From a candidate division FCPU426 bacterium (GTDB lineage: Bacteria > Oederibacteriota > Muellerivitia > Muellerivitales > Muellerivitaceae), in the NCBI GenBank assembly GCA_963796105.1, contig CAWCKJ010000009.1, positions 1-64,000 of the forward strand: a stretch of 64,000 nt of DNA, written 5' to 3'. A model generated the notes under the pieces. That model was not told the origin of the DNA. It did no database searches and worked only from the letters and a program-made list of their open reading frames with translations. A program made the translations under genes and the position numbers. This document shows, in pieces, positions 6,222 through 42,762 of this stretch (its first letter is position 1; each line of letters opens with the position of its first letter).

Positions 6222-6364
6222 GGAAGTTAAAAATCCGTTCGAGTCATAGTTGTAAGAACAAAGGGGTCAGGACAACATTTATCACTTTGGATTCATCCCA
6301 AAACCCTATGCCAAAAACAGGCTCTTATTATGCCACCACATCAACAATTAGAAATGAGGAATTA

Positions 6365-6713
6365 GCCCCCCTACGCTATCTACCTTCGCATAAGCTTCGG
6401 TAGACAGGCAGCTTCTGGGGATAGAGAGTGAGGTGTTAGGAATAGACGGCAAAACAATGAAAACCCAGAAACATTAATTTCGCAGAGAGTTTGGAACTCC
6501 AGGATTTGTGCAATTTTATAGAAATGGATTATTTATCCGCCTTCGCCAGAACACCCCGGCTTTAGCCGGGGATGAATGGCTGAAAGAAGGGCTACGGTGG
6601 ATTCCGCATACGTCATGTCGGCGGATACTCGCCGAAGCCGCCTGTCCTCTGAAGCCTCGCGCAAGCGGATGGCGGAGGTGAGTCGATATAGGTACTACGA
6701 GCTTGCCCGTGGG
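6365..6713. repeat. Cluster of nested REP-like and IS200/IS605-like palindromes
   Basis: CTACCTTCGCATAAGCTTCGGTAG inside CCCCCCTACGCT..AGCTTCTGGGG; CCCCGGCTTTAGCCGGGG (6554-6571) inside ATCCGCCTTCGCC..GGCTACGGTGGAT; degenerate CCCACGGGCAAGCTCGTAGTAC on the - strand at 6692-6713. Confidence 0.6.
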
Positions 6714-6898
6714 GCTCCATGAAATTCTGGCCGGTTGGCGCCTGGAACGTCCTTGTACTCGGCCTTCAGCTTTTTCATTCTCGCTGCGTACATTTTCCGG
6801 AGAATCCCCACCTGTTCCCCATTTAATCCCAGTGCCTTGTCAAAACATCAATTTTAAATTCCGAATCACAACGGTCCTAAATAGTCTTTTGCCACAGT

Positions 6899-6976
6899 TG
6901 TACCGATCATCCATAAAAACATTGAGAGATCGGCACGATACCAGCCCCCATAACATCTTTATGGTAGGCTGGCATG
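6899..6976. repeat. Twin-hairpin module B, copy 1
   Basis: TGTACCGAT..CCATAAA..ATCGGCAC-GATACCAG..TTTATGG..CTGGCATG; homologous to 12484-12561 (inverted) and 26546-26626. Confidence 0.8.
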
Positions 6977-7056
6977 CATGGGATACATGGGATAAACCGA
7001 TTTACCTCAGAGACTCGGAGACCCTGCTACCACAAAGCAAAAGGCGAATATCTTTA

Positions 7057-7166
7057 GATCGTGACAAGAGCATAGCTCTTGCGCCGTTGGCGATATGGCC
7101 AAGCCCAAGTGCCTCCGGAAAAATAGTTTTTCCCGGAAGCCGTCGGCTGAGCCATATAACACGATC
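7057..7166 (+). repeat. 110-bp multi-stem module C, copy 1
   Basis: GATCGTG...CACGATC ends with internal hairpins; homologous to 12631-12740 and 13685-13794. Confidence 0.9.
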
Positions 7167-7420
7167 AATAAACAAGCCCTCAATTAAAAATTAGAATTCG
7201 ACGGCCTTTCCCCGGCCAATTTAAGGAGCAGGGGTGTTTTCGCTTTTTGGATCTCATCCCGCCAGTAAAGAAAGTCTTTCATGGGTTATATTTTAACCCA
7301 AGGTGGTTTCCCCCGTTCTCTGACGAATTATATGGAAAAGATTAAAATAAAGGGATTCCGAGCCCGCTTTGATTGCCGTATCTCTTCCTAGGGCATAAAA
7401 TCTTTTCTAAAGACTTAACT

Positions 7421-7470
7421 GGGGTTGCTTCGTCGCAAGCGCCCCGATTGGGGTGGCTTCTCGCAATGAC
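7421..7470. repeat. REP/RPE-like palindrome (TTGCTTCGTCGC...CTCGCAATGAC type)
   Basis: GTTGCTTCGTCGCAAGCGCCCCGATTGGGGTGGCTTCTCGCAATGAC, 17 bp upstream of kdpD. Confidence 0.55.
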
Positions 7471-7487
7471 ACTATTGGTAATTTCTA

Positions 7488-10181
7488 ATGATTGATAAAA
7501 GACCCGATCCAGACGCCCTATTGGAACGCATGCAGGCCCAGGAAGCGGTCTCCCGCAAGGGAAAGCTCAAGATATTCTTCGGGGCCTCGCCCGGCGTGGG
7601 AAAAACCTATGCCATGCTGGAGGCCGCCCGCGCCAAAAAGGCTGAGGGATTGGACGTGGTGGTGGGGATCGTCGAGACCCACGGCCGAGGGGAAACCGCC
7701 GCCCTTATGGATGGGATGGAACTGCTCCCAGCGCGCGATGTGGAATACCGGGGAACCAGCTTCAAGGAATTCGACATTGACGGGGCGCTTAAGCGCCGCC
7801 CGGGGCTCCTGCTGGTGGACGAGCTGGCCCACACCAACGCGGAAGGGTCGCGGCATCCCAAACGCTGGCAGGACGTCCAGGAACTCCTGGATTCCGGCGT
7901 CAACGTCTATAGCACCCTGAACGTCCAGCACCTGGAAAGCCTCAACGATATCGTGGCCCAGATCACGGGCATCGTCGTTCGCGAGACGCTCCCCGACAAG
8001 GTCCTTTCCCTGGCCGACGAGGTGGAGGTGATCGACCTTCCCCCGGACGATCTCCTGAAACGCCTGGAGGAGGGGAAAGTTTACCGCCCCGAGCAGGCCC
8101 AAAAGGCGGGGCAAAATTTCTTCCGCAAGGGCAACCTGACCGCGCTGAGGGAGCTGGCCCTTCGCACCACCGCGGACCGGGTGAACGACCAGGTCCTGGT
8201 TTACCGCAGGGACAAATCCATCACCAAGACCTGGGCCACGGTCGAGAGGCTCCTGGTTTGCGTAAGTTCCAGCACCTCCTCCGCCAGCCTGGTGCGCTCA
8301 GCCCACCGAATGGCGAAAAGCCTCAAGGCGGACTGGATCGCCATTTACGTGGAGACACCGGCCCAGGAGCGCCTTCCGGCGAACGTGCGGGCCAGGGCCA
8401 TACAGCACCTGAAGCTGGCCGAGCAGTTGGGAGCCGAAACCGCGACCCTCAGCGGGACAAACTTTTCCGAGGAAGTCATCGATTACGCCAGGGAACGCAA
8501 CGTCACCAAGATCTTCATCGGCAAGCCCACCGGTTACTCCTGGAAAAGCCTCTTTGCCCCCTCCCCCGTGGACCAGCTCCTGCGAAAAAGCGGGGATATC
8601 GACGTCTATGCCACACGGGGCGAGGAAGAGGATCTGAAGCCCCTGGGACGCAGGACCCTCCCCAAAGCCCCGAAATGGTCCGGCTACGCTTGGGCCCTCC
8701 TGGCCGTGGCGGCTTCCACGGGAGTCTCCTTCCTTCTCTTCAACCACGTGGACCTGGCAAACCTGATCATGGTCTATCTCCTGGGCATCCTGGCGCTTTC
8801 CTCTCGCCAGGGAATCGGCCCCTCCACCCTGGCGTCGTTCTTAAGCGTCATCGCCTTCGACTACTTTTTCGTGACCCCTCGTTTTTCCTTCGCCGTATCT
8901 GACACCCAATACGTCTTCATGTTCCTCGTGATGCTCCTGGTGGGCCTTTCCATCAGCAGCCTGACGGTGAGGGTGCGCCAACAAGCCAGGCTCTCGCGCT
9001 TGAGGGAGAGGCGCACCGCCGCCCTCTACGCTCTTTCCCGGGAGCTGGCCTCCACAAGGGGCACGGCGGAACTACTGGATATCGCGGTCAAACATATTTC
9101 AGAGGTTTTCGACTCCTCCGTAGTGGCCTTCCTGCCGGATTCGGAGGGACGCTTGAAGATCCAATGCGGGGCGGTGGAGGATTTCAACCTGACCGCGAAG
9201 GAAATGGGGGTGGCCCACTGGGCCTTCGACCTGGGGCAGATGGCGGGCAGGGGAACCGACACCCTTCCCTCCACCGAGGCCCTTTACCTTCCCCTCCTGG
9301 CCACCGGCGCTCCCGTGGGCGCTCTGGGGGTTAAAACCAAGGACCCGGAAAGATTGTTCATTCCCGAACAATTGCACCTGCTGGAAGCCTTCGCCCACCA
9401 GACAGCACTCGCTGTGGCCGGGGACAAGCTGGAGGACAAGCAGAGACAGACCCAAATGCAAGTGGAGACGGAGAAACTCCGCAGTTCCCTCTTGAGTTCG
9501 GTTTCCCACGACCTTCGAACGCCCCTGGCCGCCATCGCAGGTTCCATCTCGAGTCTCCTGGAAAACGGGCAGGCCCTGGACGCCTCCATCCGGAAGGACC
9601 TTTTGGAGAACGTCTATGGCGAGACGGAGCGCCTGGAACGCCTCGTCACGAACCTGCTGGATATGACCCGCTTGGAATCCGGCACCGTGAAACCCAACCT
9701 GGAGAACCAGCACCCAGCCGAGGTGATCGGCACCGCCATCTCCCGCCTGGAAAAGAAACTCAAGGGAAGGGACCTCCACACCCGGATCGCCCCGGACTTG
9801 CCCCTCATCCCCATGGACGGGCTGTTAATCGAGCAGGTGGTGGTGAACCTTTTAGAGAACGCCCTGAAATACACCCCCGAAGGGTCCCCCATCACCATCT
9901 CGGCCGATTTGCGCGGCAAAGAGTTGATCGTCCAGGTGGCCGACAAGGGCCCGGGGCTCCAGGACGGAGACCCGGCCAGGCTGTTCGACAAGTTTTATCA
10001 GGGCCCGCAAAAGGAGAAAAAAGGCGGAGCGGGGCTGGGCCTTTCCATCTGCAAGGGTATCGTGGAGATCCACGGCGGCACAATTGAGGCACTCGACAAT
10101 CCCGGGGGCGGCGCCTTGTTCCGTTTTACCATTCCCCTCCGCGGCGAGGTCGTTAAAATCCAGGAGGAAACCCATGGCTGA
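7488..10181 (+). CDS. kdpD: Sensor histidine kinase KdpD
   Basis: KGKLKIFFGASPGVGKTYAML, LVDELAHTN, KRWQDV, Usp domain, 4 TM, GAF, SVSHDLRTPL H-box, GAGLGLSIC. Confidence 0.97.
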   Translation: MIDKRPDPDALLERMQAQEAVSRKGKLKIFFGASPGVGKTYAMLEAARAKKAEGLDVVVGIVETHGRGETAALMDGMELLPARDVEYRGTSFKEFDIDGALKRRPGLLLVDELAHTNAEGSRHPKRWQDVQELLDSGVNVYSTLNVQHLESLNDIVAQITGIVVRETLPDKVLSLADEVEVIDLPPDDLLKRLEEGKVYRPEQAQKAGQNFFRKGNLTALRELALRTTADRVNDQVLVYRRDKSITKTWATVERLLVCVSSSTSSASLVRSAHRMAKSLKADWIAIYVETPAQERLPANVRARAIQHLKLAEQLGAETATLSGTNFSEEVIDYARERNVTKIFIGKPTGYSWKSLFAPSPVDQLLRKSGDIDVYATRGEEEDLKPLGRRTLPKAPKWSGYAWALLAVAASTGVSFLLFNHVDLANLIMVYLLGILALSSRQGIGPSTLASFLSVIAFDYFFVTPRFSFAVSDTQYVFMFLVMLLVGLSISSLTVRVRQQARLSRLRERRTAALYALSRELASTRGTAELLDIAVKHISEVFDSSVVAFLPDSEGRLKIQCGAVEDFNLTAKEMGVAHWAFDLGQMAGRGTDTLPSTEALYLPLLATGAPVGALGVKTKDPERLFIPEQLHLLEAFAHQTALAVAGDKLEDKQRQTQMQVETEKLRSSLLSSVSHDLRTPLAAIAGSISSLLENGQALDASIRKDLLENVYGETERLERLVTNLLDMTRLESGTVKPNLENQHPAEVIGTAISRLEKKLKGRDLHTRIAPDLPLIPMDGLLIEQVVVNLLENALKYTPEGSPITISADLRGKELIVQVADKGPGLQDGDPARLFDKFYQGPQKEKKGGAGLGLSICKGIVEIHGGTIEALDNPGGGALFRFTIPLRGEVVKIQEETHG

Positions 10182-10875
10182 CCAAGGCGTGATCCTGCTT
10201 ATCGAGGACGAGCTTCCCATCCGGCGGTTCCTGCGCCCCACACTTCAAAGCCACTCCTTCAAGGTGGTGGAGGCCCAAACGGGCGGGGAGGGCCTGGCCC
10301 TGGCCTCGTCGCACAATCCGGATATCGTGCTTTTGGACCTGGGGCTTCCCGACATGGACGGCCTGGAGGTAGTGAAGCGCCTGAGGGAATGGACCACGGT
10401 GCCCATCGTCATCATCACGGCCAGGGGCAAGGAGAAGGACAAGATCGCGGGCCTCGACGCCGGCGCGGACGACTACCTGACCAAGCCCTTTGACGTGGGG
10501 GAGTTGATGGCGCGCATCCGCGTGGCCCTGCGGCATTCCACGCTCCTGAAAAGCGGGGGGAAACAGGCCCCCCTCTTTGAGACGCCCGATTTCAAGGTGG
10601 ACCTTTCCGCCAGGGTAGTGACCGTCCGGGGCAAGGAAGTCCACCTGACGCCCAACGAGTACGACCTGCTGGCCTTTCTTATCCGCCATTCGGGCAAGGT
10701 GGTGACCCAGAAACAGATTCTCCAGGAGGTTTGGGGTCCCGCCAGCGGGGACCAGGTGCAGTATTTGCGGATTTACGTCTATCAGCTTCGCCATAAAATC
10801 GAGGCGGACCCCGACCGGCCCCGATACCTTCTCACCGAGTCAGGGGTGGGCTACCGCCTGAAAACGGAAGGATAA
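10174..10875 (+). CDS. kdpE: Response regulator KdpE
   Basis: LLIEDE, LLDLGLPDMDG, GADDYLTKPF, winged helix YLRIYVYQLRHKIE..TESGVGYR; AGGAGG SD; overlaps the kdpD stop. Confidence 0.95.
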   Translation: MADQGVILLIEDELPIRRFLRPTLQSHSFKVVEAQTGGEGLALASSHNPDIVLLDLGLPDMDGLEVVKRLREWTTVPIVIITARGKEKDKIAGLDAGADDYLTKPFDVGELMARIRVALRHSTLLKSGGKQAPLFETPDFKVDLSARVVTVRGKEVHLTPNEYDLLAFLIRHSGKVVTQKQILQEVWGPASGDQVQYLRIYVYQLRHKIEADPDRPRYLLTESGVGYRLKTEG

Positions 10876-10915
10876 GAAGGGCGCCCAGTTGCGCGCAGTT
10901 CACACTATCAGCGAA

Positions 10916-11551
10916 TCATCGGTTTTGCTCAAGCCTGCTCACGTTTAAACTGTACAACCCGTCTTTATCAAATTTGCCGATGATCAGAATGGCGTCGTCG
11001 TATTCCACGCTTTGATTCGTTTCCTTATTGAAAATCTTCCCTTTTCCAATCAGGGACAATTTAACGAATTGGGACATTTCTGTTTTATTCGGCGTGGCAA
11101 AGGTTTCAGCCGAGTGAATTCCGCCCTTAAAAAGATCATCAAAACTTTTCCGGCTCATCCCCAGGCGGATACCCTGCACCAAATCCCCGTCCAAGGATTT
11201 CGCGAGCCTGAAAGTTTTCCCCTTTTTCATTTTGAAATGATCCGATTTATGAACCGTGAAACCCAGGAGGGTTTCTTGATCCCCTCCCTTTTCCCCCGAC
11301 CAGAAATCAACAACGACGGAGCCATCCTGGGTGACGAAATACCGGGAGTCCGGATTCTCCTCGCCCTCACCGGTCGAAGCGATAGGATCCGTTCCCAATG
11401 ATTTCTCAACCTCGGACAAAGTATTTTTCCCCAACTGGAACCCTAAAAATTTCGTATAGGCCAGGGGATCAAACGCAAAGGCCGGTTGGACGAATAACAG
11501 GCCGCACGCGGCAACAAAAAGACCGGCTAAAAACTGATTTCCAACTTTCAT
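10916..11551 (-). CDS. Exported hypothetical protein
   Basis: GGAGG SD, then signal peptide MKVGNQFLAGLFVAACGLLFVQPAFA. Confidence 0.7.
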   Translation of the reverse strand: MKVGNQFLAGLFVAACGLLFVQPAFAFDPLAYTKFLGFQLGKNTLSEVEKSLGTDPIASTGEGEENPDSRYFVTQDGSVVVDFWSGEKGGDQETLLGFTVHKSDHFKMKKGKTFRLAKSLDGDLVQGIRLGMSRKSFDDLFKGGIHSAETFATPNKTEMSQFVKLSLIGKGKIFNKETNQSVEYDDAILIIGKFDKDGLYSLNVSRLEQNR

Positions 11552-11663
11552 ACCCGCCTCCATTAAAACGACAGTTATTTTAAATCTACCTAAAACCAGT
11601 CGGTGACAGGTAACAGCGCTGAAGCTCAAATTAAAATTTGATCAGGTTGGGCATTTTGCTCAA

Positions 11664-12050
11664 TCACCAGATCACTTTCAGCCCAGGGAACGCACGGATG
11701 CGTTTGTCCTTGCTGAGAATTGGGCATCCATACTCTTTGGCTGTGGCTACAAGAATACGATCCACTGGATCTCCGTGAAATTCACCTTCCAACCGGGTGC
11801 TCTTCACGGCGATTGCGGGCGTCAAGGGTGTCAATTGGATTTTCGGAAGTTTTAACGCTTGATCCACCCATACCTCAACATCCCGATCAAGTTCCAAACG
11901 TCTTTTCGCCACCAACATACCTACTTCCCAACAGCTGATGGCATTAACGTAGATGCCGTCCGCGGCCCGAATGGCTTTTGAAGCCATGGGGGAGAGTTGT
12001 GGAGAGCCCGCCGCCCACCAAATCCAAGCGTGGGTGTCCAGGAGGATCAT
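11664..12050 (-). CDS. vapC: PIN-domain VapC-family toxin
   Basis: MILLDTHAWIWW, AISCWEV, HGDPVDRILVATA, LSKD. Confidence 0.92.
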   Translation of the reverse strand: MILLDTHAWIWWAAGSPQLSPMASKAIRAADGIYVNAISCWEVGMLVAKRRLELDRDVEVWVDQALKLPKIQLTPLTPAIAVKSTRLEGEFHGDPVDRILVATAKEYGCPILSKDKRIRAFPGLKVIW

Positions 12051-12274
12051 TGATCGGCTTCCCAAGTGTCATCAAGCGGGGAGACAATATCCTTTTCGCT
12101 CAAGACACTACCATGAAGGAATGTTCCTTTTTTACCATTCTCCTTCAAAACGGGAGCGATTTTAGCCACTGGGATTCCATGTTTGGTGACCACGATAGTC
12201 TCATGGGCGCTGCTCACTTCATCTAATAACGACAGGCATTTGGCCTTAAAAACACCGGCGGCGATGGTTTTCAT
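12047..12274 (-). CDS. Phd/YefM-family antitoxin
   Basis: MKTIAAGVFKAKCLSLLDEV..TIVVTKHGIPVAKIAP; ATGA overlap with the toxin start. Confidence 0.92.
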   Translation of the reverse strand: MKTIAAGVFKAKCLSLLDEVSSAHETIVVTKHGIPVAKIAPVLKENGKKGTFLHGSVLSEKDIVSPLDDTWEADQ

Positions 12275-12287
12275 AAGCTCTCCTTTG

Positions 12288-12306
12288 TGACCACTTATCA
12301 TGGTCA
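12288..12306. promoter_or_regulatory. Probable TA autorepression operator
   Basis: TGACCA-N7-TGGTCA inverted repeat just upstream of the antitoxin SD. Confidence 0.55.
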
Positions 12307-12402
12307 TATTCCCACGGGAGAAAGGAGAAGTCAAGCCAACCTAACTGGGGGAAATCTTTGAAAAACTTGGGTATTTAGGAATCTTTCTGACGGTCACACC
12401 TA

Positions 12403-12884
12403 TCCAAAATAGACTTTAGTGGATTCGACTCGTTTTACTCGCTCACCATTCCCAAGAGATGCATGGGATAAACCGATTCACCTCATGCCAACCCTCCATA
12501 AAACTAATAGGGGGCTGGTATCGTACCAATCTCCACATATGCTTAATGGAAGATTGGCACAGGGACTCAGAGACTCAGCTACTGCTTTTGCCACGGATGC
12601 ATGGGATACATGGGATTTAAAGAAACTTCAGATCGTGACAAGAGCGCGGCTCTTGCGCCGTTGGCGATATGGCCCTGTCCGCGGACCGTGGAAAAATTAA
12701 TTTTTCCATCGGCCGCCGGCATGTGCCATAGAACACGATCGATAATCAAGCCTTCATTTAAAACTTAAAATTAAAAATATAAAATTCATTCTGTAATGAA
12801 TGCCTTGCCATCCCCTGCATCCCAGCTAAAAATCTGATTTATTTATTTTATTTCTTGGTTTTTATTTAATTTGGACGGCAAATG
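12403..12884. repeat. Composite structured intergenic element 1 (head, module B, module C, tail)
   Basis: 80-bp head matches 13499-13578 at 77/80; tail 12819-12884 matches 13859-13925; contains B (12484-12561) and C (12631-12740). Confidence 0.85.
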
Positions 12885-12899
12885 TCTGACGGTCCTAAA

Positions 12900-13433
12900 T
12901 CAGCGCAGGGACTCGTAATAAGACTTGAAGAGCTGAAAGCCCTCTTCCCACTCGCCCAAATTGGATTGGAGGTTGATATGCCCCTTCTCCCCCACGTCCA
13001 CCAGCTTGGACCCCCACTGCTCCGCCAAATGGCCGGAAAACTCGTAAGTCGCGTAAGGATCATTGCGGCTGGCCACAATCACCGAGGGAAAGGGGAACTT
13101 GGACTGGATGAAAGGCTTGAACCCCGCCGCTTCCTTGGGAAAACTTTCCGACTGAATATCGGGGGGAGCCGCCAAAAAAGCCCCCTTGATCCCAGGGTCC
13201 CTGAAGGACTGCGTCCATTGGGAAACGAGAAGACAGCCCAGGCTGTGGGCCATGAGGACCTTGGGGCCGGGGTTGAGTTTCATGAACATTCCCAGGTCGT
13301 CGACCCAGTTCCCGGCTTTGGGCTTGTCCCAATCCTGGTGCTCCACCCAGACGCCGCCCAGGCGCTGGAACCAAAAGTTCTGCCAATGGCCGGGCCCCGA
13401 ATTATTAATCCCGGCTAAATAGATGATTTTCAA
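12900..13433 (-). CDS. RBBP9/YdeN-family alpha/beta hydrolase
   Basis: GINNSGPGHWQ, AHSLGC nucleophile elbow, ASRNDPY, GHIN. Confidence 0.92.
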   Translation of the reverse strand: MKIIYLAGINNSGPGHWQNFWFQRLGGVWVEHQDWDKPKAGNWVDDLGMFMKLNPGPKVLMAHSLGCLLVSQWTQSFRDPGIKGAFLAAPPDIQSESFPKEAAGFKPFIQSKFPFPSVIVASRNDPYATYEFSGHLAEQWGSKLVDVGEKGHINLQSNLGEWEEGFQLFKSYYESLR

Positions 13434-13498
13434 CTGGACCGCTCCCGAAAATATTTTGAAGCGTTATTAGCCCCTAATTTAATATAAAACTACATCTT

Positions 13499-13925
13499 TC
13501 CAAATTAGACTCTAGTGGATTCGACTCGTTTTACTCGCTCACCATTCCCAAGAGATGCATGGGATAAACCAATTCACCACAGGGACTCAGGGACTCAGCT
13601 ACAGCAACAACTTCTCACCACGGGTTCCCACGGGAACCGCAGTGCTAACGCAACACAGTGGAAGATTTAATGGACTATTGTTTAGATCGTGTTCTATGGC
13701 ACAGCCGACGGCCTCCGGGAAAATCTATTTTTCCGAGGCCTTTGGATGCGCCATAAAGCTCGCAGGGCGCAAGAGCAAGGCTCTTGTCACGATCAAAGCT
13801 TTAACTGAGTCTCTGTGCTGTGCGAAGCACAACTGTGGTGAATAGTATTTTTTCCTGAATCCCAGCTAAAAATCCGATTTTATTTATCTTTGTTTCTTTG
13901 TTTTTATTTAATTTGGACAGCAATG
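13499..13925. repeat. Composite structured intergenic element 2 (head, inverted module C, tail)
   Basis: Same head and tail as 12403-12884 in the same orientation; module C at 13685-13794 is reverse-complemented. Confidence 0.85.
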
Positions 13926-13948: not shown

Positions 13949-15142
13949 TTATTTCTTCTTCATCGCGGCCAGGATTTTGAAGTTGCTGTCGATGGTTTCC
14001 CTGAAGAGCTTGCAGTTCCCCTCGATATCGGGGCTTTGCCGCACCAGGTCCCCCCCCACCAGGAAGATGACCTCCCCGCCGTAGAATTCCACCAGCTCCG
14101 GCACCCTTTTCAGGTTCATTCCCCCGCCGGGCATGGGGAAGATGGGCTTTAATTTCCCCATGGGCATGGCGGCCCCCATCGTGATCCTGCGGCATTCCTC
14201 CGTGCTGAAGCCGAACCTTCCCCCGCTGTGCGGGAAAATGCTGGCGTCGGCCCCGGCCATGCGCATGAGCTGTCCGAAAAGCGCAAAATGGGAGATGCCG
14301 TTGTCGGGGCTGGTGACGAAGCTTCCCAGGAAGGCCGGATGGGCGAGGATCGGCAGGTCCACCGAGTCGTCGTCGGCCAACTCCCTCATGGAATCCATGC
14401 CCGTCAAGCCTGGGCAGATTAAAAGGGCGCCGGCTCCCTTGTCCTTTGCGAACCTCGCCCTTCTCTCAAGCTCCCCCGCGGGGGCCGTGACATTGGGCGC
14501 GTAGAGCGCGGGTTTTCCTGCTTTCTTGGCCCCGACCCGGACCGCCTCGACGCAACGCTCGACCCGTTCGGAAAAAGCCGCGAAAGACTGGTTGGCCAGC
14601 CCGTGGTCGTCCTTCACGATGTCGATCCCACCGGCCGCGAAATGTCCCGCCATTTCGGCCAATTCGGTTGCTGATAGCCCCATAGGCTTGAGGGCCGAAG
14701 CCAGGAGCGGCCTCGCGGGCGCGCCCAATAATTTCCTCAGGCCTTCCCGGCCGAACCGGGGGCCCTTGAAGCGGTTCCAGAAATTCCGGCAGTCCTTGAT
14801 AAGATCAAGCCTGAAACCCTTCTTCAGGCTGATGTTGCCGTAAAGGACGTTCAGGACCTGGGTCAGCTCGAAACCCGTGTCGTCGTTCAGGAAGGTGATG
14901 AGGGCCCTGGAGGCTTCCCCTGGCGCGCTGGGGTCAGGCCCGAACTCGGCGATCTGGCCGATCACATGATCCTTGATGAATCCCTCCGGAACCAGGTCCG
15001 CGGGAAACTCCACGGTTTGCTCCAGGCAGAGGTCGTTGGCTTTGGTGAGGGCTTCCTGACGGTCGCCGGTGAGGCGGTACCAGGCCCCGAACCGGTCGCA
15101 GTTGGAGCAGAATTCATGGCTACAGGGTTTGGGGTCAGCCAT
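13949..15142 (-). CDS. RuBisCO-like protein (form IV, R. rubrum-type, KDDH motif)
   Basis: EQTVEFP, NVLYGNISL, GPRFG, SALKPMGL, IVKDDHGLANQ, AHPAF, FPHSGGRFGFS, PGGGM. Confidence 0.92.
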   Translation of the reverse strand: MADPKPCSHEFCSNCDRFGAWYRLTGDRQEALTKANDLCLEQTVEFPADLVPEGFIKDHVIGQIAEFGPDPSAPGEASRALITFLNDDTGFELTQVLNVLYGNISLKKGFRLDLIKDCRNFWNRFKGPRFGREGLRKLLGAPARPLLASALKPMGLSATELAEMAGHFAAGGIDIVKDDHGLANQSFAAFSERVERCVEAVRVGAKKAGKPALYAPNVTAPAGELERRARFAKDKGAGALLICPGLTGMDSMRELADDDSVDLPILAHPAFLGSFVTSPDNGISHFALFGQLMRMAGADASIFPHSGGRFGFSTEECRRITMGAAMPMGKLKPIFPMPGGGMNLKRVPELVEFYGGEVIFLVGGDLVRQSPDIEGNCKLFRETIDSNFKILAAMKKK

Positions 15143-16149
15143 TAAAGAGCCTCCGCCTTGGAATCGCTGTGGACTGGGGTCAGATGCACCGACCCCAGGT
15201 CTTCCTGCGTTATTCCGAAGGACTTGCCGGCCATCTTTTCAATTTCCCGGACTAAAAACAAGCCGTCCATCTTATTTTCCTTCGCCAGGGTGGGGCGGCT
15301 GGCGCCGTGCAGGAAGCGGTCCTGGATGCCCATTCGGACCAGTTTGCACTTGATGCCTTTTTCAGCGATGACCTCGGCCACCGCCGTCCCTAATCCCCCG
15401 ATAATCGTGTGATTTTCCAGGGTGATGGCGCCCAGTTTTACCTTGGACAGGGCTTCCGGAATCTGGGGGTCCGTAAAGGGTTTTAGGGTGGAAATGTGGA
15501 GGTGCTCGATGGAAAACCCCTTGGACTTCAATACTTCCACGGCCTTGCGGGCCTCCTCGGTGCAGATGCCGGATGTGAAGAGCGCCAGGTCTTTGCCTGA
15601 GCTCAAGCGCCTCGCCTTGTTCAGGACCATGGGTTCGGAAGCGTCGAATAGACGGGGCAATTCCCCCCTTAGGGTCCTCACGTAAACGGGACCAGGCACG
15701 CGGTAGGCCGCCTCCAGGACCGTCTCGGCCTCGGTAGCGTCTCCCACTTCCAGCACCGTCATGTTGGGAAGGGACCTCATGATGGAAATGTCCTCAATAG
15801 CCTGGTGGGTGGCCCCGCCGGGGGTGAGAATGCCTGGCAGGAACCCGAACATCTTGACCGGAAGGTTGGGATAGGCGATCGACATGGCGATCTGGTCATA
15901 GGCCCGGCGGTAGATGAAAACCGCGAAGGTGTGCACGAGGGGCACGTAGCCTTCCCTGGCCATCCCGCCCGCGAAGCTCATCATGTTCTGCTCGGCGATG
16001 CCGAGTGAGAAGAACCTCTGGGGATAGGCGTTCTTGAAGAGATCCGCCTCGCAGGAGGAAGTCAGGTCCGCCGAAAAAACCAACACTTCCGGCTTGTCGG
16101 AGGCCCATTCCACCAGTTTCTTGGCGTGCACCCGGGAAAGGATTTCCAT
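15142..16149 (-). CDS. Transketolase-like protein, C-terminal (pyrimidine-binding) subunit
   Basis: SADLTSS, LGIAEQNMMSFAGGMA, RRAYDQI, GATHQAIED, ENHTIIGGLG; likely start MEILSR at 16149. Confidence 0.92.
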   Translation of the reverse strand: MEILSRVHAKKLVEWASDKPEVLVFSADLTSSCEADLFKNAYPQRFFSLGIAEQNMMSFAGGMAREGYVPLVHTFAVFIYRRAYDQIAMSIAYPNLPVKMFGFLPGILTPGGATHQAIEDISIMRSLPNMTVLEVGDATEAETVLEAAYRVPGPVYVRTLRGELPRLFDASEPMVLNKARRLSSGKDLALFTSGICTEEARKAVEVLKSKGFSIEHLHISTLKPFTDPQIPEALSKVKLGAITLENHTIIGGLGTAVAEVIAEKGIKCKLVRMGIQDRFLHGASRPTLAKENKMDGLFLVREIEKMAGKSFGITQEDLGSVHLTPVHSDSKAEAL

Positions 16150-16151
16150 GG

Positions 16152-17084
16152 TCAGCCCCCTCCCGGCATCGTCTTGAGGAAATCCTCGTAGGACTTTTTT
16201 TCCTCCGGGCTGTTGAAGCGCATGTAATGAAATTTGGGAGCCCGGCTCTTCAAGGGGTCCATTCCCTTCCAGGGGATCGTGTCGCAAAGAACCACCAAAG
16301 GTTTGCCGGGATGGGGAGTCATGGGCGGCGCGGCCAACTGCGCTGGGTCGTGGCCATTGACGCGGAAAGCCGCGCAGCCGAAGGCCTCGAAGCGGGCCTG
16401 GAGCGGCTCCATGCCCATGACGTCTGAGGTTTTCCCGTCGCATTGGTGGCCGTTCACATCCACGTAAATGCCCATGTTATCCAGCTTGTAATAGCTCATG
16501 GTTTGGGCGGCTTCCCAGACTTGGCCTGGTTGGAGCTCGCCGTCAGACATGAAGACCCAGACCTTGCCGGTGTCGCCCTTGAGCCTTCGGGCCAGCGCGA
16601 TACCCGCGGCCTGGCTGATGCCCTGGCCGAGGGAGCCGGTCATGACTTCCATGCCGGGGGAATGCTCGGCTCCGATCATCTCCAGGATGCCGCCGTCCTT
16701 GTTGAAATCTTTGAAGCCCCGTTCGTCCATCCGGCGGGTTTCCACCAGCGCGGCGTAAAGCACGAGGGAATAGTGCGTGGGGGAAAGGATGAAGCGGTCA
16801 AAATCCCGGCCCTTGGGGCCGTTGTAGAAGTCGCCCCGGCGGTAGTCCGGGTTGCCCTCGCCAGGCACCCCGGCGAAGGAAGCGGGTTTGATGGGGACTG
16901 GCACAGGACCCAGTTTCATGACGCGGGTGTAAAGGGTGGCGAAAATTTCCGCTGAGGAGCAGGCCTGGCTTAGGTAGCCGCCGTTGTGCCGGAGCGTATG
17001 TTCCAGGACCCTGCGGCGTATGCCGGAAGCCACGCGCGCTGTTTCCTGGGCGTGATAGGTTTCGCCGTCAACCAAGCCGAGCAT
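16152..17084 (-). CDS. Transketolase-like protein, N-terminal (TPP-binding) subunit
   Basis: DRFILSPTH, TGSLGQG, TPP motif SDGELQPGQVWEA...DVN, VNGHD. Confidence 0.92.
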   Translation of the reverse strand: MLGLVDGETYHAQETARVASGIRRRVLEHTLRHNGGYLSQACSSAEIFATLYTRVMKLGPVPVPIKPASFAGVPGEGNPDYRRGDFYNGPKGRDFDRFILSPTHYSLVLYAALVETRRMDERGFKDFNKDGGILEMIGAEHSPGMEVMTGSLGQGISQAAGIALARRLKGDTGKVWVFMSDGELQPGQVWEAAQTMSYYKLDNMGIYVDVNGHQCDGKTSDVMGMEPLQARFEAFGCAAFRVNGHDPAQLAAPPMTPHPGKPLVVLCDTIPWKGMDPLKSRAPKFHYMRFNSPEEKKSYEDFLKTMPGGG

Positions 17085-35280: not shown

Positions 35281-38200
35281 TTACTGTTTCACCAGAATCT
35301 TGAGCGTTTGCCTGGCGATCACGTGATCTCCGGAGTCCTTCTGCTCGGTCTTGCAGATGTAGAGCCCGCTGGCGATCCCAGCCGCATTCCATGCCGCCTG
35401 GCTGGTCCCTGCAACGCCCCTCACTTCCGTCACCAGTTCTCCCGCCAGGTCGTAAATCTTGACACTCAGGCTCAATCCCGGCACCGCACCCTGGAAGGTC
35501 ACGATCTTGATTCCGTCTGTCAGGGGGTTCGGATAGGCCCAAACCTTGGCAAGGGATGGCTTCGGGTTGTTCACCACCAGAACAGAAGTGACGATCATCG
35601 TCTCCCCGCCCTTCCCGTCGGTGGAATGCACTTCGATAAAGTAGTTCCCGTTGGGTACGACCGTCCCATTGGAAGCGTACCCGTCCCAAACCACCTGTAC
35701 CCCATTATTAGTCTTAATGGTTAGTGTTCCGTCCGTCGGGGAACCCGGCTCTAACACCCCGCTGGACAATTTTACCGAGGTGATCACCACCCCCTGGGGG
35801 TTTTCCACCACGCTATACAGCGACCGCACGATCTCCCCTGCTTCGTTGTAGATGTCGATGGTTACCTTCTCCAACTGCCTGCTCACCACCACGTTCAAGA
35901 TGACGCTCGAGTCCACGCCGAACGAGTCGATATTGTCCACCTTGAGGTAGTAATCCCCGTTGGGGACCGGGCTTCCATCCTGGTTCGTCCCGTCCCACAC
36001 CGTGATGAAGTGGTTCTGATCCATGATTGTCACGGGGCTGTTTAAGCCGTTGATCAAGTTCCCGTTCTGAAATTGCAGGTTCACCAAGGGCTGGGAATAT
36101 TCGGTCACTAGAAGGGTCTTCACCAGCTCCCCCGCCTCGTTGTAAACCCCAATTCGAACCGTGTAGTTCCCCATGACCATGAGGGTCGCGCAGGCCGACT
36201 TTGACAAGGACCCCGGGTAGGAGTAGGCCGCGCAGTTCACCAGGGGCCCACCCTGGGTGAAGGTGTTGATGGTGACAATGTAGCTTAGCTGATAGTTTCC
36301 AGGGGCCAGAGTCGGGAAAGTCCAGTTCATGACCGTCACCCCGCCCGCCACGTTCGTAACCGCAGAGGTCCCGGCCGGAGAAGTCCCGAAGGATACGAAA
36401 CTGCATTGGGCCGGCAGGGGGTCGCTCACCGTCAACCCAGTCACGAAGTTATAGGCCACGTTCACGTTCAGGGTGTAGGTCACAGCGTCCCCCGGCAGCC
36501 CTTGGGGCTCGGATTCCAGCTTTTGCAGGGTCACCACCGCGGTAGGGGTGGGAGTCCAGGTCGGCGTAAAGGTGTTAGTGGGCGTGTTGGTGTTCGTCGG
36601 GGTATAGGTTTTTGTTGGGGTATTGGTCGGGGTCGGCGTATTCGTGGGGGTAAAGGTATTGGTTGGAGTGAAAGTGTTGGTCGGGGTGGGGGTATTCGTC
36701 GGCGTGTTGGTATTGGTTGGCGTGTAGGTCGGCGTAGGAGTGTTGGTATTCGTCGGCGTGTTGGTGGGGGTAAATGTGTTGGTCGGAGTATATGTGTTGG
36801 TCGGCGTATAGGTCGACGTGGGGGTTGGAGTATTCGTCGGGGTGTAAGTGTTCGTTGGGGTGTTCGTCGGGGTAAAGGTATTGGTCGGCGTGGGAGTGTT
36901 GGTCAGGGTAAAGGACGGGGTGGGTGTCGGGGTATTGGTGGGGGTGTAAGTGTTCGTCGCCGTGTTGGTATTGGTAGGAGTGGGGGTATTCGTCGGCGTA
37001 TAGGTGGAGGTATTTGTGTTGGTCGGTGTGGGTGTCGGAGTGTTTGTCTGCGTATTCGTGGGGCTGTTGGTATTCGTCGGCGTGTTGCTATTGGTGTTGG
37101 TCGGCGTGTTCGTCGGGGTATTCGTCGGGGTAAAGGTATTAGTCGGCGTAGAGGTTGGTGTATTTGTCGGTGTACTCGTGGGGCTATTGGTTTTAGTCGG
37201 CGTGTTGGTGTTTGTCGGAGTCGGGGTATTTGTGGGTGTGTAGGTAGATGTACTGGTGTTGGTGGGTGTAGGGGTAGGTGTATTGGTCGGCGTATTCGTG
37301 GGGGTGTTGGTATTCGTGGGAGTGTAGCTGGGGGTGCTGGTCGGGTTATTCGTCGGCGTGCTTGTAGGTGTGGAAGTCGGGGTACTCGTCGAGGTGTTTG
37401 TCGGGGTGGGGGTCGCAGTGTTGGTGTTGGTTGGAGTTGGGGTATTCGTGGGTGTGGGGGTAGGCGTACTTGTGGGTGTATTCGTCGAGGTAAAGGAATT
37501 GGTCGGCGTAGGGGTCGGTGTACTCGTTGGTGTGGAAGTGGGCGTGTTGGTATTGGTGGGAGTGTTTGTCGAAGTGGGGGTCGGGGTCGGAGTGTAAGAA
37601 TTCGTCGGGGTAGGCGTCGGGGACTGAGTTCCGGTCGAGGTCAAGGTGGGCGTCGGAGTGTTTGTTGGTGTGGGTGTCGAAGTGGAGGTATTGGTTGGGG
37701 TGGGGGTAGGCGTGTTTGTCGGTGTATTAGTTGGAGTATTCGTAGGCGTGGGCGTTGAAGTGGCCGTAGGTGTATTGGTCGGTGTATTCGTTGGAGTATT
37801 AGTGGGCGTTAGAGTGGGCGTATTCGTAGGCGTAGGGGTCGGAGTGTTTGTTCGCGTAGGTGTCGAAGTGGAGGTATTGGTTGGAGTTGGGGTAGGCGTA
37901 TTTGTCGGCGTGTTAGTCGAAGTATTGGTCGAGGTGGGCGTAGGGGTGTTCGTCGGAGTTGGAGTAGGTGTGTTTGTCGGCGTATTGGTCGGGGTATTTG
38001 TAGGAGTAGGAGTGAATGTGACTGTGGGTGTATTCGTCGGAGTCGCCGTAGGGGTTGGAGTAAAGGTATTGGTAAAGGTATTTGTCGGGGACTGGGTTCC
38101 GGTTGGAGTAAGGGTGGGAGTCGGCGTGTTCGTCGGTGTCGAGGTCAATGTTGGTGTCGGGGTGGTGGTAGGCGTGTTCGTGGGTGTGGGGGTCGGGGTA

Positions 38201-41200
38201 CTCGTCGGCGTATTCGTCGGAGTAGGGGTGGGAGTGGCCGTAGGGGTCGGGGTCGGAGTGTTCGTGGGCGTGGGTGTAGGAGTATTGGTAGAAGTCGGAG
38301 TGGGTGTTGTCGTAGGGGTCGGAGTGGGCGTATTCGTTGGGGTAGGAGTAGGCGTATTCGTGGGAGTGGGGGTGGGTGTTGTAGTGGAAGTAGGCGTTGG
38401 GGTATTGGTCGGGGTTTTTGTTGGGGTGCTGGTCGGTGTGGGCGTAGGAGTTGTCGTGGGGGTCGGGGTCGGAGTATTCGTCGGTGTGTTGGTTGGAGTA
38501 TTCGTCAGCGTCGGTGTCGGCGTAATCGTGGGAGTGTTGGTCGGAGTAGGTGTCGGTGTGAGCGTCGGAGTAAGCGTCGGTGTATTGGTTGGGGATTGAG
38601 TACCTGTCGGGGTTAGGGTGGGTGTGGGAGTGTTAGTGGGAGTGGGCGTCAAAGTCGGCGTCGGGGTGGTCGTGGGAGTGTTGGTGGGAGTTGGGGTTGG
38701 AGTTTTGGTGGGTGTGTTGGTTGGCGTGGGTGTTGGCGTCGTCGTGGGAGTAGGAGTTGGGGTATTGGTGGGAGTCAGTGTCGGAGTATTGGTGGGGGTA
38801 GGAGTGGGCGTGGTTGTTGGAGTGGGCGTAGGGGTGTTCGTGGGGGTATTGGTCGGGGTATTGGTGGGGGTCGGGGTAGGTGTCGTTGTTGGAGTCGGGG
38901 TCGGAGTATTCGTGGGTGTCCGGGTCGGGGTATTCGTTGGTGTTGGTGTGGGGGTGGTTGTTGGGGTTGGAGTTGGCGTATTGGTTGGGGTATTCGTGGG
39001 GGTATTCGTGGGAGTGGGTGTTGCGGTCGTAGTCGGGGTCGTAGTCGGCGTGTTCGTCGGCGTCAAGGTCGGGGTATTGGTGGGAGTAGGCGTCGGAGTC
39101 GTCGTCGGAGTAGGGGTGGGTGTATTCGTTGGCGTCGGAGTTGGGGTTCTTGTGGGAGTTGGCGTGGGTGTTGTCGTAGGGGTTGGAGTTGGTGTATTCG
39201 TCGGGGTCGGGGTCGAGGTATTGGTGGGAGTGGGCGTAGGGGTCGTTGTCGGAGTAGGTGTGGATGTATTCGTTGACGTCGGAGTTGGGGTTCTTGTGGG
39301 AGTTGGCGTGGGTGTTGTCGTAGGGGTTGGAGTTGGTGTATTCGTCGGGGTCAGCGTCGGGGTATTGGTGGGGGTGGGTGTCGGGGTCGTCGTCGGAGTG
39401 GGAGTAGAAGTGTTCGTCGGTGTCTTTGTCGGAGTGTTGGTCGGTGTCGGTGTAGGCGTAATGGTGGGGGTGTTAGTGGGAGTGGGCGTAGGCGTCAGCG
39501 TTGGAGTGAGAGTCGGAGTATTAGTTGGGGATTGGGTTCCCGTTGGGGTGAGAGTCGGCGTGGGAGTGTTTGTCGGTGTGGGTGTCAAAGTGGGTGTTGG
39601 TGTTGTCGTAGGGGTATTCGTCGGGGTTGGCGTTGGAGTCTTGGTCGGAGTGTTGGTGGGCGTAGGCGTCGGAGTGGTTGTTGGAGTTGGTGTCGGGGTG
39701 TTGGTCGGCGTATTGGTTGGGGTATTGGTGGGAGTTGGCGTCGGTGTCATCGTGGGCGTGGGGGTCGGCGTGTTCGTGGGTGTATTGGTCGGTGTAGGCG
39801 TTGGGGTCGGAGTCGGCGTCCTGGTCGGGGTAGGAGTGGGGGTGTTCGTTGGGGTTGGAGTAGGCGTGTTCGTCGGAGTTGGCGTCGGTGTCGTCGTGGG
39901 CGTGGGGGTCGGCGTGTTCGTGGGTGTATTGGTCGGTGTAGGCGTTGGGGTCGGAGTCGGCGTCCTGGTCGGGGTAGGAGTGGGGGTGTTCGTTGGGGTT
40001 GGAGTAGGCGTGTTCGTCGGAGTTGGCGTCGGTGTCGTCGTGGGCGTGGGGGTCGGCGTGTTCGTGGGTGTATTGGTCGGTGTAGGCGTTGGGGTCGGAG
40101 TCGGCGTCCTGGTCGGGGTAGGAGTGGGGGTGTTCGTTGGGGTTGGAGTAGGCGTGTTAGTCGGAGTTGGCGTCGGTGTCGTCGTGGGCGTGGGGGTCGG
40201 CGTGTTCGTGGGCGTATTAGTCGGTGTAGGCGTTGGGGTCGGAGTCGGCGTCCTGGTCGGGGTAGGAGTGGGGGTGTTCGTTGGGGTTGGAGTAGGCGTG
40301 TTAGTCGGAGTTGGCGTCGGTGTCGTCGTGGGCGTGGGGGTCGGCGTGTTCGTGGGCGTATTAGTCGGTGTAGGCGTTGGGGTCGGAGTCGGCGTCCTGG
40401 TCGGGGTAGGAGTGGGGGTGTTCGTTGGGGTTGGAGTAGGCGTGTTCGTCGGAGTTGGCGTCGGTGTCGTCGTGTGCGTGGGGGTCGGCGTGTTCGTGGG
40501 TGTATTGGTCGGTGTAGGCGTTGGGGTCGGAGTCGGCGTCCTGGTCGGGGTAGGAGTGGGGGTGTTCGTTGGGGTTGGAGTAGGCGTGTTCGTCGGAGTT
40601 GGCGTCGGTGTCGTCGTGGGCGTGGGGGTCGGCGTGTTCGTGGGTGTATTGGTCGGTGTAGGCGTTGGGGTCGGAGTCGGCGTCCTGGTCGGGGTAGGAG
40701 TGGGGGTGTTCGTTGGGGTTGGAGTAGGCGTGTTCGTCGGAGTTGGCGTCGGTGTCGTCGTGGGCGTGGGGGTCGGCGTGTTCGTGGGTGTATTGGTCGG
40801 TGTAGGCGTTGGGGTCGGAGTCGGCGTCCTGGTCGGGGTAGGAGTGGGGGTGTTGGTTGGAGTTGGAGTGGGCGTGTTCGTCGGAGTTCTGGTAGGAGTA
40901 GGCGTTGGCGTGGGAGTTGGAGTGGGTGTATTCGTAGGAGTATTGGTTGGAGTGTTCGTCGGAGTAGGCGTGGGCGTTTTGGTAGGTGTAGGAGTTGGTG
41001 TCGGTGTGTTGGTGGGGGTTGGAGTCGGCGAAGGAGTGGGCGTGGGAGTCGGAGTCCTGGTCGGAGTAGGCGTTGGGGTGGGAGTCGGCGTGTTTGTTGG
41101 TGTAGGGGTATTTGTCGGCGTGGGCGTTTTTGTGGGTGTAGGCGTTGGAGTCGGAGTGTTGGTATAAGTATACGTAAAAGTGGGCGTGGTGGCGCAAACA

Positions 41201-42762
41201 ACGGTGATAGCAATGTTGTTGCTGTTCACGGGCCCCCCGCCCGCCCAACTGGCCACACCCTTGTCCGTGACAACCTGGCAATAATCACTGGTATTAACGC
41301 TGTAGGAACCCACGAAAAACGTGATCGGGGCACAAGCCCCGCCTGGCATGCCGGTAACCAACCAACTCAGGGTTGGATAAGTCGTGGATAAAGGATTGAT
41401 TGTCACAGTGTTGCTGCCCACAGTGATCGTATATTGACTGTAATTGGGCCCCTGGAATGCCCATCCCAAAGGATTGGTGATGTTGTCCGTCACAGTGATT
41501 CCGTTGCCAGGCCCCGCTCCCGCCGCGTTGCACAAATTGATCGTCATCGTAATGGCCCCGGTATCCGGATAGTTAGAGGTAGGGCCACCGGTTGTCTTGG
41601 TCAAGGACGGGTTGGGAGGAACCGGTGTGGGCGTATTGGTCACGGTAGGGGTGTTGGTAAAGCAGGGACGGTTCACCGTCACAGGCGGGTTGGAAGTTTT
41701 AGTACCGCCCGAGTAACCCACGCTCGCAGTATTGGAGATCGTTTGGCATTGGTTCCCCAGCCAATAGTAATCCTCCATGCTGGCCATCAAGGTCACGCAG
41801 GAATTGCCTTGGAAATCACCCCAGATCGCTGTGGCCCCGTTTCCAGCGGGTGCCGGCCAGCTGGCCTGTCCACCTATCAAAGAAACGGGAGATATGGCTG
41901 GAACTAACCAGCCTACAAAACCCAAAGGCGCCGTTCCAACTTGAGAATCAATCAGAGTCACGCCGCCCGACGTCACAGGGCCCCCAGTGTCGCAAACCAC
42001 CACTTGAAATGTCACGAACATGTCATTACTGCCATTGGTGACTTGCGAACCGGCGACAAGGGTTTTCGTGATAGTCAGCGTAGGCGGTCCGGCTGTGGGC
42101 TGGGGTGGTGGGATGGTGGTAGCTTGAGTGTAAAAAAGACCCCCGTTGCAATTGGTGGTGCTGTAATCACCATCAGTGGTGGAAGCTGTGAAGGGTACAA
42201 TTTGGCCCGATACGGGATTGAAAATTCCTTGGCCCCAGCAGCAATAACCCGAGGTAGTGTTGACAACAACCGGGGCAATCCAGGTGCCTCCTGTCCCTGT
42301 GTAATTAGTCGCGTACCAGTTGGTTGCTGGAGGCGAGGCTGGATTTCCAGCACTCACGTAATCCATAGATACACCGGCGGTTGAACTGGTGATCTCGGAA
42401 TGATTCCCTCCCTGGCAGGTGATATCCAAATCCCAGGAGGCATAGAGATTGTTGCAAGCAGTGTTTTGGGTAAAAACAGATACATAAACTTTGGCGCCGG
42501 TTAAAAGCGATGTGGGTACTGTGATACAACCGGGCGGGCAGGAACCAGTTCCATCCCAGTTGCAATAAGCGATTTGGCCCAGGTAAACACCACCCACATA
42601 GACTTGGGACCAGTCATCACTGGCTATACAAATCTGTGCGGAAGTAGGAGTGCATTGGGCCGACAACTTTATAGGAACTCCCAATAAAAACAGTACTCCT
42701 AATATCGTTATGAGTCGAATGCCGTGATATTTTCTTTTTTTACATTCTGATAAACTGCTCAT
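35281..42762 (-). CDS. Giant secreted Pro/Thr-stalk protein (2493 aa): Cys-rich head, DUF11-like domains, ~1550-aa PT region, DUF11 + 2 FlgD-Ig + T9SS-like C-terminal domain
   Basis: Signal peptide; TPTPTNTP repeats at ~36541-41190; [37 protein letters not shown] tail. Confidence 0.9.
39731..40854. repeat. Near-perfect 144-bp tandem repeat, about 7.8 copies (48-aa unit)
   Basis: Unit marker (T/C)GTATT(G/A)GTCGGTGTAGGCG recurs at 39781, 39925, 40069, 40213, 40357, 40501, 40645 and 40789. Confidence 0.92.

Follow-up and report, generated by a model that had tools for sequence, protein, structure and literature searches.

The window analysed here is a stretch of 64,000 nucleotides from a candidate division FCPU426 bacterium (GenBank assembly GCA_963796105.1, contig CAWCKJ010000009.1, positions 1 to 64,000 of the forward strand). 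Between 7 and 14 kb, among genes that include an RHS-repeat gene, kdpD, a Phd-type antitoxin gene, a serine hydrolase gene and a RuBisCO-like gene, the intergenic spacers hold three copies of a short cloverleaf module, the subject of this study (Table 1). A preliminary description, made from the letters of the sequence, had located these copies, given each a length of 110 bp and listed their parts. The coordinates and lengths (110/110/110) were verified. All parts are as described: a closing stem GATCGTG/CACGATC, a hairpin CAAGAGC/GCTCTTG with the loops ATA, GCG and CTT, a short CGCC hairpin that is altered in copy 3, and a long arm.

We folded both strands of each copy in silico. With RNA and with DNA parameters, all six strands adopted a four-way junction composed of the closing stem and three arms. 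Relative to dinucleotide shuffles, z-scores ranged from -4.9 to -7.7 for RNA and from -5.8 to -7.5 for DNA, and 0 of 200 shuffles did as well in each of the 12 folds (three copies, two strands, RNA or DNA). The module is not a tRNA, as had been stated, ARAGORN calling no tRNA or tmRNA gene in the window. Nor does it belong to a known Rfam family; there were no matches in the window at the gathering threshold, and a search of five loci at E-values up to 1 returned only two sub-threshold matches, both to miRNA hairpins.

Conservation of the fold across the genome

The three copies, at first taken for the whole feature, belong to a larger family. An iterated profile search of the genome from which the window comes (G000; 4.98 Mb in 16 contigs, cited below as contig:position) collected 37 copies, of which 34 are intact and three are stretched, and a covariance model agrees. 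Most intact copies measure 111 bp (25 copies), with 110 bp in seven and 112 bp in two; the stretched copies, lengthened by inserts, measure 136, 188 and 250 bp. Length is tightly held, as first suggested, but the exact 110 bp of the window copies is partly luck, since their gaps fall at different columns and lengths genome-wide run from 110 to 112 bp. Pairwise identity among the G000 copies spans 62% to 100%, and window copy 3 is 98% identical to the copy at C2:371267.

That the fold itself is conserved, another proposal of the preliminary description, is borne out by an alignment of the 34 copies. Within it, 93.9% of cells are paired, and 11 of 43 pairs have changed on both sides. The covariation score was reached by 0 of 500 shuffles, and slid controls pair at only 34–44%. 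Divergence is lower in paired than in unpaired columns (0.157 versus 0.395), and the second hairpin alone occurs in several fully paired variants.

Conservation of this kind could point to RNA or to DNA, and both had been offered as candidates: a structured non-coding RNA (ncRNA) and a folded single-stranded DNA (ssDNA) substrate. The imperfect pairs favour no strand (51 G-T versus 49 A-C), and mean fold energy does not differ between the two strands (p = 0.17 as RNA, 0.08 as DNA). The four-way shape is the minimum-energy shape for 30 of 33 distinct copies on the given strand and 31 of 33 on the reverse strand with RNA parameters, and for 29 of 33 on each strand with DNA parameters. All 37 copies are intergenic, none overlapping a called gene. 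Flanking genes are co-directional at 32 of the 37, compared to 620 of 990 long spacers (63%; p = 0.001), and the module itself lies with transcription in 18 cases and against it in 14. A scan of 78 neighbouring open reading frames (ORFs) turned up no family in common. Because both strands fold equally, wobble pairs are balanced and orientation ignores transcription, a structured ncRNA gene is an unlikely reading of the module. The ssDNA candidate fits these data.

The module as the core of repeat-armed mosaics

The preliminary description overlooked the larger picture, in which the module is nested within other repeats. All 37 copies sit inside a mosaic of such repeats, and the module never occurs outside one. 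In 34 copies the mosaic includes the type A arm, which has a 9-nt period; the other three lie with related mosaic motifs. The distance from the end of an arm to the GATC of the module is 12 or 14 bp at 29 of the 32 measurable ends. Elsewhere, the central slot between type A arms holds an AT-rich filler of ∼50 bp or, at C4:589 kb, a gene of the GxxExxY nuclease family. Given that the same arms surround filler, GxxExxY gene or module, the module forms the core of a nested element with repeat arms, whose central slot it fills. A weak inverted repeat lying outermost is present at too few copies to define the ends of the element.

AT-rich linkers adjoin the core and were found only next to it, none occurring without a core, an argument against frequent new insertion into empty slots. 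A separate twin-hairpin repeat is inserted in arms and also in two of the stretched modules (C4:458098 and C2:103303). This motif of ∼76 bp has >100 matches across G000. In a 90-bp direct repeat (12396–12485 and 13492–13581; 93% alike), whose two units, 1.1 kb apart, bracket the serine hydrolase gene, a conserved box stands ahead of a type A arm.

Table 1. Positions in the window of the cloverleaf module and of the repeats that surround it
Feature	Positions	Strand	Context
Left type A arm (9-nt-period GGGAT)	6891..6993	+	around copy 1; split by twin hairpin
Twin-hairpin unit, ∼76 bp	6900..6975	+	inserted in left arm; separate repeat family
Type B arm motif (GACTC-type)	7006..7018	+	ahead of copy 1
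Cloverleaf module copy 1, GTG stem type	7057..7166	+	between RHS-repeat gene and kdpD
Twin-hairpin unit, approximate ends	12485..12560	-	upstream of copy 2
Left type A arm of inverted repeat	12590..12616	+	encloses copy 2; stops 14 bp before GATC
Cloverleaf module copy 2	12631..12740	+	between Phd-type antitoxin gene and serine hydrolase gene
Right type A arm of inverted repeat	12810..12823	+	encloses copy 2
Type B arm	13578..13590	+	one side of copy 3
Cloverleaf module copy 3	13685..13794	-	between serine hydrolase gene and RuBisCO-like gene
Type B arm, inverted to first	13805..13817	-	other side of copy 3

Gain, loss and rearrangement

We compared the sites of the module with their orthologues in a congeneric genome (G001; 93% complete), in which the covariance model finds no module anywhere. 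All 11 comparable sites lack the module. A mosaic is absent altogether from seven (those at dxs, dnaB, galT-galK, tsaD, lemA, ymdB and, next to window copy 3, the RuBisCO-like gene), and the other four carry a mosaic of another kind (at xseA, at kdpD next to window copy 1, and at two further places). Synteny with G001 extends to one side only at the two window sites, and the galT-galK assignment rests on gap length. For window copy 2 the orthologous site was not usable, placing this copy outside the comparison. The unit gained or lost between the two genomes is the whole mosaic.

The boundaries of the core are sharp. Of the 82 pairs whose members are at least 88% alike, 21 cease to match within 0–4 nt of GATC on the left and 22 do so on the right. 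The linker that follows the type B motif at 7006..7018 is found at the left end of window copy 1 and at the right end of four others. All 12 copies with an ATG stem lie in flipped orientation to the arm and form one clade (support 0.999), tracing to one founding inversion. In one copy the long arm is inverted.

Beyond their ends, 36 of 37 copies have no direct repeat and one has a repeat of 2 bp, so no target-site duplication is seen. At a single junction, C4:675058 (GATCATGATC), the core is exactly missing and CATG is shared; this shared CATG is a direct repeat, so the junction may represent a deletion rather than a pre-insertion site. A search for empty sites by paired flanks gave no convincing site beyond this one. 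Copies tend to cluster, 17 of 37 having a neighbour within 8 kb, where the distribution of all mosaic sites predicts 8.7 (p = 0.009). Mean similarity is no higher for neighbours within 11 kb (0.803 versus 0.786, p = 0.23), and the signal of local copying is weak (near-closest relatives make up 4 of 10 pairs, p = 0.04). Two DNA sequencing runs with a small share of the source organism gave only sparse, short contigs, which yielded no usable trace of empty, inverted or excised forms.

Distribution in relatives and other DNA

Of 99 genomes of the phylum searched with the covariance model, two contain the module: G000 and G015, a genome of another genus that is 82% complete. The two G015 copies keep all four helices through many changes and lie 12–13 bp inside arms of the same design and another sequence type; the exact type A arm pattern has 0 matches there. 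A structure-first scan added one distant G000 copy, at C3:602.5 kb, between type A arms. The type A arm pattern occurs in 17 of 31 genomes of the family, G000 included, mostly around short AT-rich fillers. In another of these relatives, G013, the arm also occurs as direct repeats ∼120–170 bp apart in an array-like arrangement (C7; C21:965-1239).

In G000, the split matches enclose only short repeat inserts and no transposase gene. Searches of wider collections yielded no further member of the family. A blastn search with copy 2 over 41 genomes matched G000 only, apart from a 25-bp match to the AT-rich tip in G002 that we judged to be chance. Pattern scans of a genome collection gave 0 exact matches and, in a later scan, two, which are the G015 copies. 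Scans of a viral collection gave 0 and then one chance match, and plasmid and phage searches gave no module match. In metagenomes, the exact pattern gave 0 matches and a loose pattern at least 119 loci; among those listed, the model made no match below E = 0.15. The best of these loci (L235) was rejected, its hairpin lying inside a different 7-mer repeat. A search of the literature, covering accessible main texts, found no description of the module or of GxxExxY arms. As a sequence family, the module is undescribed.

Nuclease genes that share the arms

G000 has two genes of the GxxExxY family (PF13366), and the one at C4:589 kb is enclosed by type A arms, i.e. the arms that 34 of the 37 module copies share with it in the same genome. 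Among the matches listed, the same arms enclose GxxExxY genes in G001 and G013 (L106 and L115), and GxxExxY genes of relatives lie between arms of this design. Both module-bearing genomes contain the family, G015 with four matches. The family is abundant (7,999 of 7,999 scored candidates matched), and its member was predicted at a mean predicted local distance difference test (pLDDT) score of 93.8. We found no solved relative by sequence and no Foldseek match at E = 0.001. The function of PDDEXK_3 (PF13366) is listed as unknown (PMC3424549). Other candidate enzymes in G000, namely two four-helix-bundle genes and two IS200 genes, were ruled out by their having other repeats or ends, and DUF559 was not found among the candidate genes.

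Other features near the copies and in the window

Several further repeats accompany the module. At 7424–7470, just upstream of kdpD, a short hairpin repeat belongs to the type flanking an Ssn-like GIY-YIG nuclease gene at C4:166.5 kb; G001 has an expanded version of it at the same place. Palindromes at 6692–6713, 60499–60516 and 60574–60591 match the ends of two IS200-type genes and stand here without a transposase. A terminal repeat motif of the TIRtron type (6263–6271) is directly upstream of the RHS-repeat gene, with no transposase adjoining. At one site with a full cloverleaf mosaic in G000, the G001 counterpart (L306; C24:49.3-50.8 kb) carries a single type A arm of unchanged orientation, an Ssn-type repeat and an apparently IS30-like transposase ORF.

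Elsewhere in the window, paralogous giant ORFs of 2,493 and 1,959 aa (35281–42762 and 43270–49149) contain very long Thr-Pro tracts, which account for a block of GC skew at 36–48 kb. At 13949–17084, the RuBisCO-like gene is followed by split transketolase genes, possibly a cluster for a sugar-acid or methylthio pathway.

Discussion

The module has much in common with repetitive extragenic palindromic (REP) sequences, bacterial interspersed mosaic elements (BIMEs) and REP doublets forming hairpins (REPINs). These are extragenic, multi-copy, palindromic, mosaic and strain-variable and make no target duplication (PMC3337134, PMC3733652, PMC8266576). They are also described there as thought to act as folded ssDNA, and some REP dimers as inserted inside longer palindromes. 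Yet the module is a branched core of 110 bp, compared to the hairpins of 20–40 bp in REPs. A GTAG or CGTC tag is present at the ends of 0 of 37 copies in G000, although one of the two G015 copies has a CGTC that overlaps its first base. No REP-associated tyrosine transposase (RAYT) is flanked by the module; all 16 Y1 matches in G000 have other ends, the nearest module copy being ∼0.6–0.9 kb away. And the arms that host the module belong to a PD-(D/E)XK gene. TIRtrons (TIRYT), of which G000 has 14, are over-represented near the module, but their terminal repeats fit the published GGGGWSAS motif (PMC3733652) and have nothing in common with module or arms.

Other families are similar in part. The bcr1 repeat of the Bacillus cereus group is likewise a small dispersed repeat at non-conserved positions, with a cruciform-like fold and compensatory changes (PMC3184786); bcr1, however, is ∼155 bp long, has 5-bp direct repeats and is reported to be transcribed. 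The module lacks direct repeats, is built of three arms on a closing stem and occurs invariably inside other repeats. In Ssn/SRM systems (NTS-ssnA-NTS), a small single-domain nuclease gene is flanked by a repeat that also occurs in many copies without the gene, an arrangement like the one seen here, but Ssn is GIY-YIG and its repeat a short directional hairpin (PMC11893778). The Ssn-like GIY-YIG gene of G000 has its own repeats, unrelated to the module; one further GIY-YIG gene lies beside a single module copy. With the repeat-armed GxxExxY cassettes the module shares arms and central slot, and in both cases gene-less copies outnumber gene-bearing ones, but its slot is filled by a conserved four-way-junction core rather than a gene or AT-rich filler. 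Like miniature inverted-repeat transposable elements (MITEs), it is short, non-coding, multi-copy and present or absent at orthologous sites, with the whole mosaic as the unit; MITEs have terminal inverted repeats of 15–30 bp, whereas the module has a 7-bp closing stem and longer outer arms. By the tests that define them, the module fails as a member of the REP, MITE, bcr1 or Ssn families. It works like REP/BIME/REPIN mosaics, resembles bcr1 in a branched fold kept by compensatory change, and is best read as a variant of the palindromic selfish-repeat kind, a new sequence family and not an RNA gene.

In our view, the module is very probably the DNA repeat core of mosaics that are mobile. How it moves is less certain. 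We favour, with a probability of roughly 0.5, a non-autonomous REP/MITE-like element whose structured DNA core would be moved in trans by a candidate GxxExxY system. Shared arms, the constant spacing and the occurrence of GxxExxY genes in both module-bearing genomes speak for this system. We place the nuclease of the arms first because of the analogy with Ssn nucleases, which cut ssDNA near their flanking repeats (PMC11893778) and provide a working model for the arms. In DNA made single-stranded at a replication fork, in a transcription bubble or by supercoil-driven extrusion, arms and core would fold. An arm-bound nuclease might then cut at a fixed distance inside the arm. Through template switching, host repair would either carry core and arm into a new spacer or exchange what fills the central slot (cloverleaf, nuclease gene or short AT-rich filler). 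Copying would favour those copies whose fold is intact, and compensatory changes, as well as the occasional arm inversion, would themselves arise when the template is switched across stems. A more specific version, in which the core acts as a hyper-parasite, i.e. a junction-shaped unit of ssDNA that has recognised ends of its own, sits in the GxxExxY gene slot and is cut and swapped by that PD-(D/E)XK nuclease, seems to us doubtful.

A number of observations weigh against movement by the GxxExxY system. No module adjoins a GxxExxY gene in G000, the nearest being ∼1.1 kb away, and 29 GxxExxY loci of relatives contained 0 true module matches. The module is absent from most relatives that possess both arms and GxxExxY genes, meaning that the core is dispensable for the arm system. 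The predicted structure resembles PD-(D/E)XK nucleases generally (best Z-score 7.7, Cas4-like; 6.2 for Hjc; all <8) and, as a model, points to no junction-specific activity; moreover, no joining step is evident for a nuclease by itself. The lone core-less junction at C4:675058 can be a slippage deletion. Because the copies share descent, covariation counts overstate the number of independent events, and the 82 pairs are likewise related, their flank swaps reflecting perhaps a dozen events. Finally, copies are enriched near HUH transposase genes of the TIRtron type, with 8 of 37 within 5 kb compared to 3 of 115 other mosaics (Fisher p = 0.0006, for copies that are not independent).

This enrichment suggests a serious rival, improbable though we consider it, in which HUH (Y1) transposases of the TIRtron type use the cloverleaf as substrate, nicking and rejoining the folded ssDNA and inserting the core into arms already in place, in the manner of RAYTs acting on REPINs. 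Cleavage and rejoining of folded ssDNA are activities of HUH enzymes (PMC8266576), and such an enzyme would fit the clustering of copies and the lack of target duplication. Besides the proximity of the 14 genes to copies, at three places a transposase gene lies between two copies 6–7 kb apart (C2:97.6-103.6 kb, C2:154.5-161.6 kb and C6:193.0-200.4 kb). Copy pairs spaced at 4–8 kb also recur at loci that have no TIRtron-type gene. The TIRtron-type genes carry unrelated terminal repeats of their own, however, none of them within 400 bp of a copy, and all 37 copies lack GTAG and CGTC tags. The genomes are also discordant, since G072 has 18 matches to the transposase query and no module, whereas in G015 (82% complete) the module occurs and the query finds nothing. 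Common residence in variable regions could explain the proximity. Marginally less probable still is a passive passenger, which entered an arm-bounded element once and was amplified along with it, its fold being kept by template switching or gene conversion without recognition by a protein. Such a history agrees with a core that is dispensable in relatives, with the single founding inversion of the ATG-stem clade, with core-bound linkers that would travel with the core, and with perfect strand symmetry, the expected product of template switching. It is at odds with the retention of the 110–112 bp length, the hairpins with three-base loops and the long arm across subfamilies with little common sequence (the main G000 family, C3:602.5 kb and G015), and with flanks that change sharply at the GATC ends, suggesting that the core boundary is recognised.

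The two remaining explanations are much weaker. A structured ncRNA family or cis-regulatory RNA would account for the strong covariation and fixed architecture; the 32 copies between co-directional genes may be read through, and bcr1, with its cruciform-like fold, is described as transcribed (PMC3184786). But strand-neutral wobble pairs and energies, random orientation and unrelated neighbours, together with absence from orthologous sites within the genus and the lack of an Rfam match, make it very unlikely. Even less probable, and largely refuted, is movement as a classical MITE by a DDE transposase that acts on 7-bp terminal inverted repeats and duplicates a 4-bp target. The 7-bp inverted ends fit, the junction at C4:675058 with its shared CATG resembles an empty site, and IS1595-type transposase genes adjoin two copies; yet 36 of 37 copies have no direct repeat outside their ends, the larger GTG type has inner 4-mers that are inverted rather than direct and no matching empty site, and the module never leaves its mosaics.

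Dispersed DNA repeats can mimic the covariation of RNA, and strand symmetry is the tell-tale; here it removes a false ncRNA candidate. Should the hyper-parasite version prove correct, module and GxxExxY nuclease together would represent a mobile-DNA system that needs neither transposase nor recombinase, and the module would be the first defined DNA substrate for this huge, uncharacterised nuclease family. The fixed distance of 12–14 bp between arm and core, together with the sharp GATC boundaries, predicts where the cut would lie. The module thereby offers a compact substrate for two questions, namely the means by which REP-like repeats spread when no transposase is dedicated to them and the role of GxxExxY nucleases.

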